Assembly (NCBI GenBank): GCA_963803275.1
Contig: CAWDLS010000002.1
Coordinates: 99,905 to 163,904 of the forward strand
Direction: 5' to 3'
Source of the DNA: an uncultured Gammaproteobacteria bacterium
Lineage (GTDB): Bacteria; Pseudomonadota; Gammaproteobacteria; UBA9214
Length of the DNA: 64,000 nucleotides
Shown: positions 13,981 through 52,975 of the stretch, in pieces
How positions within the stretch are numbered: position 1 is the stretch's first letter
Layout of the letters: the number at the start of each line of letters is the position of its first letter
Notes under the pieces: model-generated
Databases searched by the model: none
Told to the model about the DNA's origin: nothing
The model's input: only the letters and a program-made list of their open reading frames with translations
Program-made: the position numbers and the translations under genes

Positions 13981-14763
13981 TCAGCCCAGTCTCTTGTGAC
14001 GGGAGACAGCCAGCAGACCGAGCAGGCCCGAGCCAAACAGCCAGGCCGCAGCAGGGACCGGAACAACAGAGTCGACATGGATGGAGGTGATATCGAAATC
14101 GAAATTGAAACCAGGAAACGGACCGTTGTCCATCGGGACACCCCCGACGCCGTCGTCGCCGGTGAGACAGCTCGCGGTCATGACGCAAACCGGATCGTTA
14201 TGGTAGTTGGTGTCCAATGTCGTGGTGGCTATCGGGGCGGTGCCGATCGGATACTTACCATTGATCATGCCATTACTGGCCGGGGTCGCACCCACGCCGG
14301 AGATGGTGGTGCTGGCGGCAAACGGGCCAGCACCGAAGAAGCCGGCGGCGTCAAGGACGATACCCGTGTTGATATTGTTGTTGCCATTCCAGTCCCACAG
14401 CATCTTGCCCATGACCAGCGTACCGGCACCGCCGGCACCGTCACCAACGGCCAGTATCGAAAAGTCGTGTACACCCAGGGGACCACTGGTTTCGAAATCG
14501 AAGGGATTCATAACCACGCTGCCAGCGCCTGTGCCCGTATCGTACGTGAAGGTACCGGATATCTGGGTACGCAGACCATAACCCCAGGTCGGATCCCCGT
14601 AGTAAGGATAGCTGACGTTATCCAACGGCGTGCCCGAGGCGTTTAGCCAAGTGAACAGGCCGGTCCAGGATGCGTTGATTATGGCGGCGTCGGCCGTGGC
14701 AGCGGTACCTATGCCCAACGAGATGCTCAGCGCCGCAGCGATAGCGGTTTTATTATTCTTCAT
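13981..14763 (-). CDS. PEP-CTERM sorting-domain surface protein (paralog A)
   Basis: Signal peptide MKNNKTAIAAALSISLGIGTAATADA; Gly/Thr/Asn-rich body; C-terminal VPVPAAAWLFGSGLLGLLAVSRHKRLG = PEP-CTERM motif (VPxP + TM helix + basic tail); GGAGGA RBS before ATG 14763. Confidence 0.75.
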   Translation of the reverse strand: MKNNKTAIAAALSISLGIGTAATADAAIINASWTGLFTWLNASGTPLDNVSYPYYGDPTWGYGLRTQISGTFTYDTGTGAGSVVMNPFDFETSGPLGVHDFSILAVGDGAGGAGTLVMGKMLWDWNGNNNINTGIVLDAAGFFGAGPFAASTTISGVGATPASNGMINGKYPIGTAPIATTTLDTNYHNDPVCVMTASCLTGDDGVGGVPMDNGPFPGFNFDFDITSIHVDSVVPVPAAAWLFGSGLLGLLAVSRHKRLG

Positions 14764-37737: not shown

Positions 37738-38523
37738 TCAGCTCATTTTCTTGCGACGGGCAACACCCACCAGACCGAGCAGGCCGGAGCCGAACAGCCA
37801 GACTGCGGCCGGGATCGGGACAGCAGGTGCGGTTACGTTTGTGACATGGATGGAGGTAATGTCGAAATTGGCACTGAAGCCCGGGAATGGACCGTTGTCC
37901 ATCGGATCACCACCAATACCATCGTCACCGATGATGAAAGCGCCACCGTTATGGAAATCAGTGTCAAACGATGTCGTAGCCATCGGGGCTGGACCGATCG
38001 GGAACTTGCCCTTGTTGATGCCATTACTGGCCGGGGTCGCACCCACACCGGAAATGGTGTCGCTGGTACTGACCGCACCAGCACCGAAGAAACCGGCGGC
38101 GTCGAGAATGATACCCACGTTAATGTTGGTGCTCGTGGCCCAGTCGAACAGCATCTTGCCTGCCACCAGCGTGCCGCTACCACCCATCCCGTCGCCGATA
38201 GCCTGCATCACAATGTCGTGGGCGCTCGCCTTACCCTTGTTGAAGAACTCAAACGGGTTCACGACTGCGGAACCAGCACCCGTGCTGGTATTGAAGCTGA
38301 AGGTACCGCTGATCTGAGTGCGCAGACCGTAACCCCAGGTGGCATCGCCATAGTACGGATAGCTGGTGTTCTGCAGTTGAACACCGGCCGGATCCAGAAT
38401 GGTGAACAGGCCGGACCAGGACGCATCAATGACTGCTGCACTGGCGCTGGTCGGCATTGTAGCCACACTGATCCCCAGAGAAACGGCAACAGCAGATGCT
38501 AGAGCAGTTTTCTTCAAGTTCAT
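37738..38523 (-). CDS. PEP-CTERM sorting-domain surface protein (paralog B)
   Basis: Signal peptide MNLKKTALASAVAVSLGISVATMPTSASA; body about 60% identical to 13981-14763; C-terminal VPIPAAVWLFGSGLLGLVGVARRKKMS; GGAG RBS 7 nt before ATG 38523. Confidence 0.75.
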   Translation of the reverse strand: MNLKKTALASAVAVSLGISVATMPTSASAAVIDASWSGLFTILDPAGVQLQNTSYPYYGDATWGYGLRTQISGTFSFNTSTGAGSAVVNPFEFFNKGKASAHDIVMQAIGDGMGGSGTLVAGKMLFDWATSTNINVGIILDAAGFFGAGAVSTSDTISGVGATPASNGINKGKFPIGPAPMATTSFDTDFHNGGAFIIGDDGIGGDPMDNGPFPGFSANFDITSIHVTNVTAPAVPIPAAVWLFGSGLLGLVGVARRKKMS

Positions 38524-38670
38524 GATTGACTCCAAATAATTTGTTAAATATCGATATTAACATTCAATTTTATTGTTAACCGTTAGTTGTTGTCAGTACC
38601 TAAATAGCTCCGCGAGCACTGACAGTGAACCGAACCGGCATGACAATAGCTGCACAGGCACCATTATTGT

Positions 38671-38686
38671 TGCAACTAGCGGGCCA
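38671..38686 (-). promoter_or_regulatory. candidate sigma-54 (-24/-12) promoter TGGCCC-GCTAG-TTGCA upstream of PEP-CTERM paralog B
   Basis: Minus-strand reading of 38686-38671 gives TGGCCCGCTAGTTGCA: GG and GC at the canonical 12-nt offset with a TTGCA -12 box; about 150 bp upstream of the start codon in a 716-bp AT-rich intergenic region. Confidence 0.35.
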
Positions 38687-39251
38687 AATTTTATTATTTA
38701 AGGAATAACAGTGTTATAAATATTCGCCCGTTCATAACACTATGGCTGTTGCGCCGGATATGTAAGAATTCCCAACAGGATTATAACCATTCAGGCGCCG
38801 GTGATACCGCACGGAGATGATGTTATAAAATATCTAAAGATACAAGAGTTGCACTGAAACACAGAACAGATAAGGAGGTCCCTGGACATTTGTAAATAAT
38901 CACGACAGAATTCTCTTGCCCATCCGATGTAGCCGCAGTGCCAAGCGTCAACTGGTCAAGCACAACTGGAAAACCCGCACGTCGAAACTATGCCACATCG
39001 CTACGGATCCACAATAATATCGTGCGATACCGAAAGCTGATCAGCTTGACAAATAATCCGCCTACCAACAATCATGTGGCCGCGAAAGCTGACCGGATAG
39101 ATTTCTGCCCCTTCAAGGCATGTATTGCTTATTAATAATACAATCTGAACCGTACTCGGCGCCAGTCGTCGCGACCCGAACACCAGGATAAACGGAGGCG
39201 TTACAATAAACAACTCAAAATCCCACATTAGGGACTTCCGGAGGAGACCAA

Positions 39252-40631
39252 ATGAAGCGGCTATTCAAGCATCTGCGTAGTTTATGTGTTATCTCACTGC
39301 TTATTACACCCTTTAGCGCCTACGCGACCAACGGATACTTCCTGATCGGTTATGGCGCCAAGTCCCGGGGTATGGGTGGTGTGGGCGTAGCCTATGCACA
39401 GGATGCCCTGGCCGCGGCATTCAATCCCGCCGGCATGACGGATGCCGGTGTGAGCACCATGCGCATCGACTTCGGTATGGAGCTGTTCAACCCGCCGCGC
39501 TCGGTTATCCACAGCAGCGACACGCTCGGCTCACCGGTGTCCATAACCGACGAAAAAAGCGGCAGCAACGAGTTCCTGATACCCAGCTTCGGCGCCATCT
39601 ACAAGTTCAATCGCAAGATTTACATGGGCATGGCGGTCATCGGCAACGGGGCCAACACCCGCTATCACCAGGCCGTACCCGGTATACCCACCTGCGTCAA
39701 CGGCGACACATCCGGGGGCACCGGCAGTTACTTCTTCAACTTCAACTGTAATGCCGACAGCACCACGGTCGGCGTACAGCTCCTGCAGGCGCAGATGCTG
39801 CCAAGCATCGCCTACCAGGTGAGCAGGACCCAGTCCCTGGGCGCCTCGCTGGCCATCGGCATCCAGCAATTCCGTGCCTATGGCCTCGGTGCCTTTGAGG
39901 ATCTGGGATTCGCTGGTGCCGGTGCTACCGGCACCAGCGGTAACGGCAATGACTACTCGTATGGCCTCGGCGTACGCGTGGGTTGGCTGGGCAAGTTCCT
40001 GGACAAGAAGCTGACCCTCGGCGTCAACTATGCCTCGCGTGTCTTCATGACCCGCTTTGAGAAATATGACCAGCTGTTCGCCGAGCACGGTGACTTCGAT
40101 ATCCCCGAAAACTATTCCGTCGGACTGGCCTACAAGCTGACGCCCAAGCTGACGGTTGCCGCGGATATCATGCAGATCAATTACAGCAACGTCGCCTCGG
40201 TCGGCAACCCGGGACCGGTTGACCCTGTCGACCTCAATCCGCTCTGCCCGGGCGTCGACCCGGCGATTTGCCAGCTGGGCGGCGATCTCGGCATGGGCTT
40301 TGGCTGGACCGACTCAACGGCCTACAAGATCGGACTGAATTATGATTACAGCAAGCAGTGGAGTTTCCGCGCAGGCTACAACCACGGTGATACCACCATC
40401 AAGAAGGACCAGGTCCTGTTCAACATGCTGGCGCCGGCCACGGTGGAGGATCACGTCACGCTGGGCGCTTCTTACCGGCCGAGCAAGAATGTGGAGTGGT
40501 CTGCCAACATCATGCACGCCTTCGAAAATACCATCAGCGGCCCGACGGCCTTTGGCAACCTGCCCGGCGACGATGCATCCATCACGATGGAAATCAACAC
40601 GGTCGGCATCAGCTTTGCCTACAATTTATAA
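39252..40631 (+). CDS. FadL/OmpP1/TodX-family outer-membrane transport protein
   Basis: Signal peptide + NGYFLIGYGAKSRGMGGVGVAYAQDALAAAFNPAGM N-terminal hatch motif and beta-barrel alternation through the rest, ending ...ISFAYNL. Confidence 0.8.
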   Translation: MKRLFKHLRSLCVISLLITPFSAYATNGYFLIGYGAKSRGMGGVGVAYAQDALAAAFNPAGMTDAGVSTMRIDFGMELFNPPRSVIHSSDTLGSPVSITDEKSGSNEFLIPSFGAIYKFNRKIYMGMAVIGNGANTRYHQAVPGIPTCVNGDTSGGTGSYFFNFNCNADSTTVGVQLLQAQMLPSIAYQVSRTQSLGASLAIGIQQFRAYGLGAFEDLGFAGAGATGTSGNGNDYSYGLGVRVGWLGKFLDKKLTLGVNYASRVFMTRFEKYDQLFAEHGDFDIPENYSVGLAYKLTPKLTVAADIMQINYSNVASVGNPGPVDPVDLNPLCPGVDPAICQLGGDLGMGFGWTDSTAYKIGLNYDYSKQWSFRAGYNHGDTTIKKDQVLFNMLAPATVEDHVTLGASYRPSKNVEWSANIMHAFENTISGPTAFGNLPGDDASITMEINTVGISFAYNL

Positions 40632-40734
40632 CCACAAGGAGATGGGCCGGTTAATGATTTTTTGTCTGCATATCTAAATTCTTGAGGGAAAGGGCATGTC
40701 ACATTTAACAATAAATCTGACTCGCACGATCAAA

Positions 40735-41316
40735 ATGACGGCTATGGCCAGCGCCATGGCCATAGCCTTGGGCGGCAGCAGCCTGCTGTGCACAAGCACA
40801 CCGGCAGCGGACCTGATTTTCAGCTTTACCGGCAGCACCAGTGGCGGTCTGTTTACCATGCTGGATCCGGCGGGGTGCCGCTGGGCAACACCAGCTACCC
40901 GTACTACGGCGATCGACCTAGGGCTACGGCTGGCGTACCCAGCTTACCGGCACCATCACCATCGACCCGGCAACCAAAAGCGGCTCGATAGCGATCGCCC
41001 CATTCGAGTTCTCAATGGCGGTCCAGCGGTTGCGCATGATATCACGTTAACCGATGCCAGCAGCGATCCGCTCGACACCGGCGGAGCTACCATGTTGTTG
41101 GGCAATATGAGATTCGACTGGAGTGGCAGCAACGACATCCCGGTGACGCTGGTCTGGGACGCCACCTGGCCTGATGACCGCTATAAATAGCGGCCTGGCG
41201 GTCAGTGACGTAGTTTCGCGGTGGCGCAGCATGTGCCACCTGCGCGACCCCGGCATCAAACGGGATCACCAAGGGCAAGTTGCCGATAGGTCCGGTCCCG
41301 ATGGCCACCACTTCTT
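40735..41316 (+). pseudogene. N-terminal domain of a PEP-CTERM-family surface-protein gene, disrupted by at least 4 frameshifts and one stop
   Basis: Frame 1 gives signal peptide MTAMASAMAIALGGSSLLCTSTPAADLIFSFTGSTSGGLFTMLDPAG; frame 3 GVPLGNTSYPYYGD; another frame GYGWRTQLTGTITIDPATKSGSIAIAPFEF; frame 1 GGPAVAHDITLTDASSDPLDTGGATMLLGNMRFDWSGSNDIPVTLVWDA; then ITKGKLPIGPVPMATTSFDT. All are collinear with paralogs A/B. Confidence 0.45.
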
Positions 41317-43362
41317 TTGATACCTCTGACACTGGCGCACCGAATTATACGGCCACATTACCACTGGTTAACGATACGGCTTGCAATTGGCGGCTCGCCC
41401 ATGCAGGCCGGTCCGTTTCCCGGTTTTAATGCCAATTTCGATTTCTCATCGCTGACCCTCATCAGCGATGGCAGTGGCCCGACCTTTACACAGCCGGCGG
41501 ACGTCAACTTCACCGCGCCGGAACAGGCAACACCCGCGGCCATCAGCGTCGGTCTCGGTACGGTCACCGACGAGGCGCCGCCCGGCACCACGGTCGAATA
41601 CAGTATCGACGGCAAGGCGATCAACGACCCGACCAAGACCTGGATTGCCGACAACAACGGCAGCAACACCATCTCGGTCAACGCCACCCAGACCGTGACG
41701 ACCCTGGCGGTCGACTGGCGTGCAACCGATACCCTGAGCGGCCAGTCGTTTCAGACCCAGAACGTGACGGTCACCATCACGGATACCACGGCACCCAGCA
41801 TCACCGGCACGCCGGCAGACGTGAGCACCAGCGTCACCAGCACGGCAGACAGTGTCTGCTTCGGCGCACTGACCGCCACGGATGCCGTTGACCCGACACC
41901 GGCCATCCAATGGTCCCATGACGGGTTCACCTTCAACACGGCGAATCCGACAGACAACTGCTCGACCGGTTTCGGCCCCAATGCCAACACGGTAACCTGG
42001 CGGGTGACGGACGACACGGGCAACACTGCGACCTACCTGCAGACCGTTACGCTGAACCTGCCAGCCGGCATTACCGGCAAGGCCTGCACCGTTGATCTCG
42101 CCACAGCCGGTGCGCGCCTGCTGGAAGGCGACTTCACCATGCGCACGTCATCCGGTTCCATTACCGGGAACATCGACCACGGAGTCACCGGTAATATCGA
42201 CACAACCGTGTTCTGTACCGACCCGGACATCGTGAACTGCAACCCGACCCCGCCCGCGGTCACACTGATCTCAGGACAGCCCTTCTTCGGATTCGACTGG
42301 TCGGCCGCGCCAGTGCGACTGTTCGATCAGGGTACCTGGACATTCGAGACCTGTCCGTTCCCGCGGGTGGCGGTCAATGCCGGAACACCAAGCGCTGACT
42401 GGATATCGGATCCGGCCAATGGAGGCGATGGCTCGACCAAGTGCGGAAGCCAGTTCGCGCCCAACCCGATTACCATGACCGTCGGGGCGGGTCAGCTGGG
42501 CGCACACATGCTGTTTAACTGGGCGAGCAACGTTGCCATCGACGTGGTCGTGGTATGGGATGTGGGCTGCAACAAGTTCGAACTCACCTCCACCGACCCC
42601 GACGGCGACGGCATCCTGTCCACCCCGATGGTCGATGGACCCTTCAAGGGTTTCAATGCCGCGTTTGACGTCAAGACCCAGCCCGGCGAACCACCGATCG
42701 CGGATGGCGGCTACACGGTTACCGTCGCGACAGCCCAGAACCCGGTAGCCGGCGAATCACCGCTCCCGCTGACGACACAGGCATTGCCGGCCTTCACGGC
42801 AGACTCGGCTGCGGTACGATCCTGCGTAGGCGGCTGCTACAAATTCACCACCACGGATCTGCTCGACGGCAATGACGTCGCTGGCGCCTACAAATACGCC
42901 CAGGTCACACTGCCGCTGAGCGAGGTCACCCCGTTCTGGTCGCTGTACCGCAAGTACGACGAGGCCACCATGACCTGGGGGCCGTTTACGATCAACAACC
43001 GCAACAATGTCCTGACCGCGCCGCTGGATCAGGGCACCGGCGAGTGTCCGGAACCGGGCAACGGCACCTATGACCGCCCCTCCTCCGGTGCGCTGACGGA
43101 CAAGCTGCGAGAAAACGATCTGTGTGTCCAGCTCACGATCGAGGACAACGGTCCGAACGACGCCAATCCGGCGGCGGGCACGGTGGATGATCCGGGCGGG
43201 GTGGCTGAAGTCCCGGCTGGCGTGCTGCCGAAGCCGGAAAGTAGCGGCGGCTGTACCGTTGCCGGCTCGACAGTCGATCCTGCAAAGGGCGGGGCGTGGT
43301 GGCTGGTGGCCGGCTTCCTGACCTGGATGGGCTGGAAACGCCGTAACCGTCACTCACTCTAG
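41317..43362 (+). CDS. large Thr/Asp/Gly-rich surface protein, C-terminal 681 aa of the PEP-CTERM-family gene, with divergent C-terminal sorting tail
   Basis: Begins in-frame with MQAGPFPGFNANFDFSSLTLI (homologous to MDNGPFPGFNFDFDITSIHV of paralogs); repeated TxTD/PTP-rich modules; second MVDGPFKGFNAAFDV motif; ends ...PKPESSGGCTVAGSTVDPAKGGAWWLVAGFLTWMGWKRRNRHSL (Gly-rich + TM + basic, not a canonical VPEP). Confidence 0.5.
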   Translation: MIPLTLAHRIIRPHYHWLTIRLAIGGSPMQAGPFPGFNANFDFSSLTLISDGSGPTFTQPADVNFTAPEQATPAAISVGLGTVTDEAPPGTTVEYSIDGKAINDPTKTWIADNNGSNTISVNATQTVTTLAVDWRATDTLSGQSFQTQNVTVTITDTTAPSITGTPADVSTSVTSTADSVCFGALTATDAVDPTPAIQWSHDGFTFNTANPTDNCSTGFGPNANTVTWRVTDDTGNTATYLQTVTLNLPAGITGKACTVDLATAGARLLEGDFTMRTSSGSITGNIDHGVTGNIDTTVFCTDPDIVNCNPTPPAVTLISGQPFFGFDWSAAPVRLFDQGTWTFETCPFPRVAVNAGTPSADWISDPANGGDGSTKCGSQFAPNPITMTVGAGQLGAHMLFNWASNVAIDVVVVWDVGCNKFELTSTDPDGDGILSTPMVDGPFKGFNAAFDVKTQPGEPPIADGGYTVTVATAQNPVAGESPLPLTTQALPAFTADSAAVRSCVGGCYKFTTTDLLDGNDVAGAYKYAQVTLPLSEVTPFWSLYRKYDEATMTWGPFTINNRNNVLTAPLDQGTGECPEPGNGTYDRPSSGALTDKLRENDLCVQLTIEDNGPNDANPAAGTVDDPGGVAEVPAGVLPKPESSGGCTVAGSTVDPAKGGAWWLVAGFLTWMGWKRRNRHSL

Positions 43363-43381
43363 CACTCGATTGCATGTGCAG

Positions 43382-43416
43382 CGGCGCAGTCAGGAATGAC
43401 TGCGCCGTTTTATTTT
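43382..43416 (+). terminator. rho-independent terminator (CGGCGCAGTCA-GGAA-TGACTGCGCCG + TTTTATTTT)
   Basis: 11-bp perfect stem, 4-nt loop and U-tract 20 bp after the 41317-43362 stop. Confidence 0.65.
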
Positions 43417-43533
43417 GCATGGCGCACGATGCACAGGCATGATATTGACCCACAGCCCGCTATCTGTTCAAATCAGCAAATTATTTACAATTCAGAATCT
43501 TGGTTTAATCACCATCCTAGGATAAGGCAATCC

Positions 43534-52592: not shown

Positions 52593-52975
52593 CTCCAGTA
52601 TCCTGTCACCGGCACGTCGCGCCAGTGCAGTGACCGGCTCCAGCAGGCGGCCGATATCCGTGATTCAGAGCATCGTTAGTCACTTTTTTATCCCTAGTAT
52701 CGAAAATTGGAAAATACGTCGTTGCCTGTCATCCGCGGGTGCAGATACCGGTCGCAGCGGCAGCAGGCCACGAAAACATGGCAGACAAGTATACCCTGTC
52801 CGCGCCTTCCGCGCGCCTGCCCCGCCGGCGGATGCAGGGAACTTCACGCGCCGGGAATTGCGCGCCTGACGCAGCCAGAAAGGCCCCGTATTCGATGCCG
52901 TAGCAGGCGGCAGCAACACCCGGTCGCGTCGATCTGGTACCATTGAACGCAGTACTTGCTCCGGCACCCGTATCC

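Follow-up and report, generated by a model that had tools for sequence, protein, structure and literature searches.

An Ortholog of Choice-of-Anchor U Domain Proteins with Clustered Frame Breaks and a Putative Cysteine-Type Sorting Tail beside an Exopolysaccharide Locus of an Uncultured Gammaproteobacterium

The Gene and Its Orthologs

The 64,000-nucleotide stretch of an uncultured Gammaproteobacteria bacterium analyzed here (assembly GCA_963803275.1, contig CAWDLS010000002.1, positions 99,905 to 163,904; "the window" refers to this whole stretch) contains, at 40696-43362 on the + strand, a large gene that is the ortholog of an intact gene coding for an 888-residue protein (P0001), to which it is 97% identical and whose contig is syntenic with the window. 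The start codon of the large gene corresponds to that of the intact orthologs and is the ATG at 40696 (MSHLTIN...), whereas the initial annotation had placed the beginning of the gene at 40735. A Thr/Asp-rich extension of 681 amino acids had also been described; the reading frame is indeed regained, but the open reading frame (ORF) of this length (41317-43362) begins at a TTG chosen mechanically, the gene in fact continues from 41386, and the richness in these residues is only moderate (T 13.5%, D 7.5% of the ORF). The deposited gene call (429,654-bp source contig in NCBI and ENA) comprises a 653-residue product (P0097, 41401-43362), which leaves a conserved surface protein deposited as a mere fragment. 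The parts of the gene are the following:

40696-41385, + strand: signal peptide and N-terminal domain (N-domain), ancestral codons 1-230, carrying all the lesions (three-frame translation; tblastn; codon alignment to the orthologous loci L001, L014 and L016)
41386-43362, + strand: uninterrupted gene body, codons 231-888 plus stop, 97% identical to P0001 and without indels versus L001
~42103-42675, + strand: the N-type domain in a second and diverged copy (…GAHMLFNWASNVAIDVVVVWDV…MVDGPFKGFNAAFDV), itself the most conserved part of the whole family
~42808-43215, + strand: choice-of-anchor-U-like module (choice_anch_U matches in orthologs)
43243-43359, + strand: C-terminal tripartite sorting signal SSGGCTVAGSTVDPAKGGAWWLVAGFLTWMGWKRRNRHSL (NCBIfam scores; tail profile)
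43380-43419, + strand: terminator-like hairpin (13-pair stem, 8 GC, then a T run), directly after the stop codon

A search with the 681-residue ORF retrieved 45 clear orthologs, the closest being P0001 (888 residues, 97%) and P0002 (887 residues, 92%). More than 40 full-length orthologs are intact, including FOKN1_0788 of Thiohalobacter thiocyanaticus, and occupy the same slot. P0001 is encoded on a 215,687-bp ENA contig (L001) that follows the window collinearly for 22 kb, with 98.9% identity, and has the gene intact. The relatives are Gammaproteobacteria, namely Thiohalobacter thiocyanaticus and metagenome-assembled genomes (MAGs) labelled Ectothiorhodospiraceae or Thiohalobacterales. Sequence and synteny identify the window gene as the positional ortholog of a conserved gene of ~870-905 codons in Thiohalobacter-like sulfur-oxidizing Gammaproteobacteria, and the idea that it is a decaying paralog has to be abandoned.

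The protein is laid out as a Sec signal peptide, the N-domain, a series of immunoglobulin (Ig)/HYR-like beta-sandwiches, the second N-type domain, the choice-of-anchor-U-like module and the Cys-containing tripartite tail. An AlphaFold (AF2) model of P0001 (the 97%-identical ortholog, not the window copy) is a string of beta-sandwiches with a predicted local distance difference test (pLDDT) score of 77.8, and its matches in the PDB are Ig-, cadherin- and adhesin-like repeats. Several orthologs score above the cut-off (32 bits) of the choice-of-anchor U model (NCBIfam NF041766), with 47.2 bits for P0025, 42.3 for P0032 and 32.2 for P0003, and this domain lies directly before the tail. The closest ortholog, P0001, reaches 15.8 bits and the 681-residue ORF of the window gives no match at E<=0.01; the membership of the window gene in this family follows from orthology, not from its own score. 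The label of PEP-CTERM-family gene, given initially, is misleading, the orthologs being choice-of-anchor U domain proteins both by name and by score. A literature search on "choice-of-anchor" returned no paper with the U family in its title or abstract.

Two small genes of the window code for proteins that are related to the large one through the N-domain:

37738-38523, - strand: small PEP-CTERM/VPLPA-CTERM protein of 261 residues, a divergent neighbor that shares the N-domain (VPLPA-CTERM, 31.9 bits; cut-off 25.35)
13987-14763, - strand: the other small PEP-CTERM paralog, with 61% identity to the one above (VPLPA-CTERM, 18.3 bits; cut-off 25.35)

With 37738-38535 (- strand) as the query, tblastn matches 40729-41544 with E=5e-17 and, more weakly, the second internal domain copy at 42484-42672, so the kinship of the N-domain with the two small proteins, noticed from the start, is confirmed. 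This family of small proteins counts more than 790 homologs, and Pfam has no domain for it; the AF2 model of the small PEP-CTERM protein (pLDDT 82.9) gave nothing significant with Foldseek against the PDB (best E=0.09). The N-domain behaves as an exchangeable cassette: P0002 is only 49% identical to P0001 in this domain and 92% in the rest of the protein, while the reverse pattern is found in P0009-P0011 (72-77% in the N-domain and 59-63% in the body, versus P0001). Another type of N-terminal domain is present in the orthologs P0005, P0007, P0018 and P0024. Within the gene body, 10 of 11 bases at 42447-42457 are changed between the window and L001 (GSQFAP versus GDATTP), and the GGQFTP of P0002 is closer to the window; this segment resembles a short tract of recombination or conversion rather than noise.

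Frame Breaks in the N-Terminal Domain

A three-frame translation of 40690-41460 runs through the frames in the order 1, 0, 2, 1, 2, 0, 1, and the four conserved peptides reported by the initial annotation are all found in it, spread over three frames:

40872-40913, + strand: peptide GVPLGNTSYPYYGD, frame 0
40922-41011, + strand: peptide GYGWRTQLTGT..., frame 2
41014-41166, + strand: peptide ...FDWSGSNDIPV..., frame 1
41220-41378, + strand: peptide ...ITKGKLPIGPVPMATTSFDT..., frame 0

The lesions behind these frame changes were defined by base-by-base DNA alignment to the intact L001 and are, in order:

40868-40869 (after 40868), + strand: 1-bp deletion, GGG to GG, versus L001
40913-40914 (after 40913), + strand: 1-bp deletion, CC to C, versus L001
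40919-40921, + strand: nonsense change TGG to TAG in the ancestral frame, Trp in L001, L014 and L016 (alignment)
41011-41012 (after 41011), + strand: 1-bp deletion, TT to T, versus L001, which restores frame 1 until 41166
41167, + strand: 1-bp insertion of T versus L001, not in a homopolymer
41218 (equivalently 41216), + strand: 1-bp insertion of G versus L001, extending no homopolymer
41383, + strand: 1-bp insertion of G versus L001, not in a homopolymer, with the ancestral frame back from 41386

Three deletions and three insertions cancel each other, so that the net shift is zero and the original frame comes back at 41386. Read from the native ATG, the product would stop at 41190 and have 164 residues. 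The frameshifts suspected initially (at least four) are thus real, although their exact number is six, accompanied by one stop codon. All lesions fall in the first 690 of 2667 bp (26% of the gene), the remaining 1977 bp being free of indels, and this clustering of the six indels has P=3e-4 under uniform placement. In the alignment to the orthologs these are intact, and no ortholog shares any of the frame changes or the stop codon, which are specific to the window assembly.

Consensus Error or Gene Decay

Differences between the window and L001 were polarized by protein-guided alignment with the intact outgroups L014/L015 (85% identical in the N-domain) and L016 (73%). The N-domain has accumulated 14 window-derived substitutions (10 nonsynonymous and 4 synonymous) and the six indels, versus a single L001-derived change, whereas in the remaining 1977 bp 33 window-derived substitutions face 30 L001-derived ones, mostly synonymous on both branches (Fisher P=0.003 versus the N-domain) and with 13 and 12 nonsynonymous changes, respectively. 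These 20 events on the window lineage amount to ~3% of the N-domain, when flanking genes differ by ~0.15% in total. The rest of the region is well preserved: versus the relative's contig, 23 single-nucleotide polymorphisms (SNPs) and one gap were counted between 12.5 and 33 kb, and between 12.5 and 38.5 kb the differences come to a few dozen SNPs and one gap of 1 bp, from which it follows that the window assembly is accurate in general. Outside the large gene, the only indels in protein-coding sequence over the 22-kb synteny are two at the extreme 5' end of an inositol-monophosphatase-like gene. Two further divergent patches were found:

38515-39200, no strand: intergenic patch with dozens of window-unique substitutions and 1-bp indels (alignment versus L001 and L014)
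52596-52973, strand not given: third divergent patch, with many indels and substitutions (alignment versus contig_43334)

In the intergenic patch the noise also falls inside promoter-proximal blocks that are kept between L001 and its 85% relative L014, and the flanking genes are ~99.85% identical to the relative. Logan contigs of the run ERR11718635 carry the window allele at all 17 flank sites at which the relative's contig alone deviates, and over 38515-38835 they match L001 at all ~50 positions that differ from the window. In the third patch, a non-homologous segment of 132 bp in the window replaces 307 bp in contig_43334, where a 55-residue ORF is called, and identity is again 100% from 52974; the inositol-monophosphatase-like gene has its two indels there, in the first codons, and codes for 241 residues here and 271 in the relative. 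An independent copy of the N-domain was also looked for: no Logan contig with the FadL gene (the upstream neighbor) or the export gene was found, the P0001 cluster has three members only, and a scan of JGI metagenomes for the window's N-domain allele type gave only sequences of <=85% identity (L014-L016). A chimeric consensus that borrows from another known allele was considered and rejected, as the window-derived N-domain states match L014 in none and L016 in only 1 of 14 cases; mutagenesis like that of diversity-generating retroelements was likewise rejected, because the substitutions are not adenine-specific. In one orthologous locus, L006 (nanopore MAG MFD03551.bin.2.59), nearly every gene is found in several tblastn segments, with frameshifts throughout, unlike the local pattern of the window.

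The initial annotation had offered, as an alternative to decay, that sequencing indels hide an intact gene, and this is the better supported of the two, since the orthologs are intact, the lesions are window-specific and fall in one patch, and the neighboring patch is not reproduced in the independent assembly. The six frameshifts and the stop would then be errors of the local consensus, in a segment of a long contig that varies between strains, with an intact gene in the organism, a reading that we hold to be somewhat better than evenly balanced. The N-domain cassette is variable between strains, and therefore the consensus of a metagenome, or its polishing, would be weakest precisely there. 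Several facts weigh against this reading. The independent assembly bears witness over 38515-38835 only, short of the indels of the gene (40868-41383), and relies on haplotype phase over ~5 kb identical in both strains, where a de Bruijn contig could switch strain. The three insertions lie outside homopolymers and a G to A nonsense change is atypical of indel-type error; the nonsynonymous to synonymous ratio of the N-domain (10:4) fits neutral decay as well as error; and the replacement at 52596-52973 has the look of real variation, and some of the patches may thus be biological.

The alternative, that the six indels and the stop are real and the protein is not made (a true strain-specific pseudogene), is possible but rather improbable. 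It fits the general accuracy of the window (one indel in 20.7 kb versus L039 and none in 9.2 kb versus L040), the presence of a nonsense substitution and of non-homopolymer insertions among the lesions, the neutral-like N-domain ratio, the deposited remnant of 653 residues, and the character of the gene as a recombination hot spot, with 3.2% divergence versus ~0.15% in the flanks and a mosaic N-domain. Simple uniform decay is nevertheless rejected, because a gene with ~20 events in 690 bp should have roughly threefold that number in its remainder; ~17 indels and an excess of nonsynonymous change would be expected in the 1977 bp, where no indel and nearly equal nonsynonymous counts are seen. 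The ~3% of window-lineage events in the N-domain also contrasts with the ~0.15% of total difference in flanking genes, and window-unique noise of this kind is also found in the adjacent intergenic patch, where the independent assembly contradicts it. To explain the clean 3' part, the pseudogene could have suffered a very recent hit with local hypermutation, or recombinational replacement by a functional allele, in which case the allele-specific N-domain cassette itself would be beyond repair; for such a rescue by recombination, two special events would be needed, and their breakpoints would have to coincide with the domain border. Programmed frameshifting or phase variation that would keep the gene switchable is practically inconceivable: in its favor are the zero net shift and the location of three changes in short runs (GG, C, T), but there are six separate sites plus an in-frame stop, the runs have only 1-3 bases, slippery heptamers are absent, and the changes are shared with no ortholog, the intact orthologs effectively refuting it. 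Lesions that all fall in one strain-variable cassette, together with neighboring intergenic noise, form a practical signature of a local failure of the consensus, and such a pattern of breaks should not count, without reads, as gene decay.

The C-Terminal Tail

The C-terminus has the form described initially: it lacks a PEP box, and a Gly-rich segment containing a single Cys is followed by a hydrophobic helix and then by clustered basic residues. Its parts are SGGC, with the invariant Cys at 43252-43254, 13 further residues, the hydrophobic helix AWWLVAGFLTWMGW (43294-43335) and the basic cluster KRRNRH (43336-43353). Searches against Pfam and NCBIfam confirmed that it is not a PEP-CTERM signal: neither the tail nor the 681-residue ORF matches TIGR02595 or PF07589, while both small neighbors do match VPLPA-CTERM/PEP-CTERM. 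The suggestion of a tail like that of GlyGly-CTERM proteins, read by a rhombosortase, failed for the window gene, whose tail gives no match to GlyGly-CTERM (TIGR03501, cut-off 15.5 bits) even at E<=10, although it holds for a relative, P0039 (887 residues), which carries a genuine GlyGly-CTERM tail (SGGGSLDPWMLGALLAWFGRRRK, 22.5 bits). Most members of this orthologous family have a Cys-type tail, and P0039 clearly documents an anchor swap within one family. The best matches of the window tail, both below their cut-offs, are to two cysteine-type models: MYXO-CTERM (TIGR03901, cut-off 20), the best-scoring one, with 19.9 bits for the last 49 residues and 18.1 for the last 68, and JDVT-CTERM (NF033191, cut-off 27), with 12.7 bits. 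The trait of JDVT-CTERM tails, a single invariant Cys followed by a helix and then an Arg-rich cluster, is present. The tail of the T. thiocyanaticus ortholog (P0032) passes the JDVT-CTERM model with 28.6 bits.

A set of 54 tails, from orthologs and from unrelated proteins, was assembled, and a Gly-Cys pair is invariant in all of them. At E<=1, 26 of these tails match JDVT-CTERM and 17 MYXO-CTERM, figures that fall to 3 and 4 at E<=6.5e-4; ~20 bits with MYXO-CTERM is reached by only 4 of the 54. A profile of these 54 tails, run against 1.84 billion representative proteins, gave 299 matches at E<=1e-3 and 77 at E<=1e-10, and in nearly all of the best 150 of the 299 listed the match is at the extreme C-terminus, the proteins ranging from 50 to 1172 residues. 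The class shares the pattern GC[ST][ILMV]S..PV.P..R.DWWL..GF..WLG..RRK (rough consensus [ST]-G-C-[ST]-[ILMV]-S-x2-P-V-x-P-x2-R-x-D-W-W-L-x2-G-F-x2-W-L-G-x2-R-R-K), preceded by a choice-of-anchor-U-like module in the full-length members examined. The window tail has Asp at +8 and Pro at +9 after the Cys; the elements conserved class-wide are P at ~+8/+10 and D/E-W-W at ~+14. Ten core members of the class score <=16.5 bits with JDVT-CTERM and none of them passes any NCBIfam sorting-signal model. Where hosts were seen, they are environmental Gammaproteobacteria, with one locus labelled Betaproteobacteria; a tail-bearing protein (P0065) is present in Sulfurifustis.

By its pattern, the tail belongs to a recurrent cysteine-type class whose architecture resembles those of JDVT-CTERM and MYXO-CTERM and which lies mostly outside both models. 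It is tentatively proposed that it represents a distinct, so far uncurated Cys-containing sorting signal, handled by a pathway apart from XrtA, rhombosortase and MrtJ, with the FadL-family barrel encoded upstream as a possible surface-delivery or anchoring partner. The class being recurrent, well defined and mostly invisible to both the MYXO-CTERM and the JDVT-CTERM model, its carriers go unrecognized as sorted surface proteins; a dedicated model, combined with phylogenetic profiling for the protease, would extend the story of the "myxosortases" to sulfur-oxidizing Gammaproteobacteria. The frameshifts are of low interest, whereas the uncurated variant of the cysteine-type signal, the anchor swapping and the FadL-like partner are of moderate interest.

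Gene Neighborhood

Immediately upstream of the large gene lies the following gene:

39252-40631, + strand: FadL/Toluene_X-family outer-membrane beta-barrel gene (Pfam PF03349, 70 bits)

The order of genes is conserved in L002-L004, L006 and the complete genome of Thiohalobacter thiocyanaticus (L044): TPR-sulfotransferase genes, the small PEP-CTERM gene (-), the FadL/Toluene_X gene (+), the large gene (+), and then XrtA-type export, chain-length, kinase and ATPase genes. In most loci the large gene is just upstream of the XrtA-type exopolysaccharide (EPS) export genes, and this EPS/exosortase locus thus pairs PEP-CTERM proteins with a relative that bears a different, cysteine-type anchor. The FadL-like gene directly precedes the large gene in the window, L001-L004, L006, L044 and L045/L046; elsewhere it is located upstream within ~2 kb (L007) or within 1 kb (L012), or downstream (L009). 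In L045/L046 the slot after the same FadL-like gene is occupied by a gene for a 1137-residue protein (P0056) with a different body (Bact_surface_Ig-like) and the same module and tail. This adjacency suggests that the FadL-like barrel and the large Cys-tail protein form a functional pair, and the conserved barrel is a concrete candidate for the surface route of such proteins.

Further upstream, at ~11.7-37.5 kb, the window contains a long island of genes for TPR-sulfotransferase/methyltransferase fusions, 2OG-Fe(II) oxygenases and PhyH-family proteins. Families of this island recur by the orthologous locus in Thiohalobacter thiocyanaticus (TPR-methyltransferases and a TPR-sulfotransferase) and in L045/L046; a role in the modification of proteins or polysaccharides is a guess.

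Possible Sorting Route

By analogy with known cysteine-type systems, the protein would be exported by Sec and retained in the inner membrane by its C-terminal helix; its Cys would be modified and the tail cleaved by an intramembrane protease encoded elsewhere, possibly a CPBP/Rce1-like enzyme of the "myxosortase" type, as for MYXO-CTERM and JDVT-CTERM, and the mature protein would reach the cell surface or the EPS matrix as an adhesin-like or structural component. Cysteine-type tails have been linked in silico to CPBP/Rce1-like proteases (MrtX/C/P, MrtJ, MrtS and MrtA; bioRxiv 10.1101/2023.06.07.544157), and it has been shown experimentally that MrtX cleaves TraA in a Cys-dependent manner and is required for its surface display (PMC11980579). 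For the window protein, the steps from export to cleavage, including the CPBP protease, are inferred only. The FadL-like neighbor is the only positional clue to a partner, and its role in surface delivery is speculation. Gene identity, function and frame breaks taken jointly, this overall explanation is judged to be barely on the favorable side of even.

Against this route stands the absence of CPBP, rhombosortase and exosortase genes from the 64-kb window and from within 10 kb of the orthologs; in hydropathy scans, no ORF of the window exceeds four predicted membrane segments, and a single small one, of 165 residues and belonging to DUF2919, reaches that number, and PF02517 is not listed within 10 kb of the gene in L001, L044 or L045/L046. 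JDVT-CTERM proteins usually have MrtJ encoded next to them (in 16 of 17 cases; bioRxiv 10.1101/2023.06.07.544157), which is not so here, and the window tail scores under both curated cut-offs.

The two other pathways that might read the tail are each very improbable. A GlyGly-CTERM-like signal handled by a rhombosortase would account for the Gly-rich SSGG that precedes a helix and a basic cluster, and the tail of P0039 shows that this pathway can serve the protein in some genomes; besides the lack of any match in the window tail, only 1 of the 54 related tails matches the model (E=0.06), and in the class the Cys is invariant and separated from the helix by ~13 residues, when GlyGly-CTERM signals have no Cys and their motif abuts the helix (bioRxiv 10.1101/2023.06.07.544157). 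That the tail is a degenerate PEP-CTERM signal, read by XrtA, the exosortase of the neighboring EPS system, has just as little to recommend it. The gene heads an XrtA/PEP-CTERM EPS locus, beside genuine PEP-CTERM proteins that share its N-domain, and 13 of the 54 tails give weak PEP-CTERM matches (best E 0.036), which in the examples examined cover only the helix and the basic part. The PEP/VPxP motif is missing, however, the window tail is unmatched in Pfam and NCBIfam, and the conserved elements of the class (GC, PV.P and DWWL) are foreign to PEP-CTERM.

Comparison with Known Systems

The gene resembles those for choice-of-anchor U proteins, as P0025 is so named by NCBI and the anchors vary here as well, being mostly of the Cys type and of the GlyGly-CTERM type in P0039. 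It departs from them in the low score of P0001 (15.8 bits) and in the unmatched ORF of the window, and the family name is silent on function. Type IX secretion offers another parallel in its shuttles of the PorV/FadL family, because a gene for a FadL-fold barrel lies here beside that of a large surface protein with a C-terminal sorting signal. The NCBIfam match of the FadL-like gene to PorV/PorQ is weak, though, with 41 bits, far below the cut-off of 90, the host is a gammaproteobacterium, the link is deduced from adjacency alone, and no further match to families of this secretion system was obtained among the window genes scanned.

With the PEP-CTERM substrates of exosortase (XrtA), the window protein has in common the N-domain, the neighborhood of the EPS locus, and the combination of a signal peptide, a C-terminal helix and a basic tail; it differs in lacking a PEP or VPxP box and any model match, in being three times larger and in having another type of anchor.

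The resemblance to the MYXO-CTERM/MrtX system (TIGR03901) consists of the Cys signature, the helix and the Arg cluster; MYXO-CTERM is the best model for the window tail, and the experimental precedent for Cys-dependent cleavage by a CPBP protease followed by surface display is that of MrtX (PMC11980579). The score is just under 20, the GCGC motif is lacking and the host is a gammaproteobacterium. MYXO-CTERM is confined to Myxococcota/Bradymonadales, and matches elsewhere were judged false positives by the curator (bioRxiv 10.1101/2023.06.07.544157); the relatives of the window, being Gammaproteobacteria, fall outside this host range, with its dozens of copies per genome and its MrtX/MrtC/MrtP proteases.

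JDVT-CTERM/MrtJ (NF033191/NF033192) differs from the window tail and its class in score (12.7 bits versus the cut-off of 27, and <=16.5 for core members), in the longer spacer (~13 residues) and own PV.P...R.DWWL..GF..WLG pattern of the class, in the CPBP gene that usually adjoins JDVT-CTERM genes and has no adjacent counterpart here, and in distribution, as the class tail is found on many different proteins when JDVT-CTERM is typically present once per proteome. Both occur in Pseudomonadota, and the window tail has the single invariant Cys, the hydrophobic helix and the Arg-rich end; its Asp-Pro at +8/+9 falls where the near-invariant DP of JDVT-CTERM has been described, some nine residues past the Cys, whereas the class at large conserves P at ~+8/+10 and D/E-W-W at ~+14. 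The JDVT-CTERM model is passed by the T. thiocyanaticus ortholog's tail, and 26 of the 54 related tails match it weakly.

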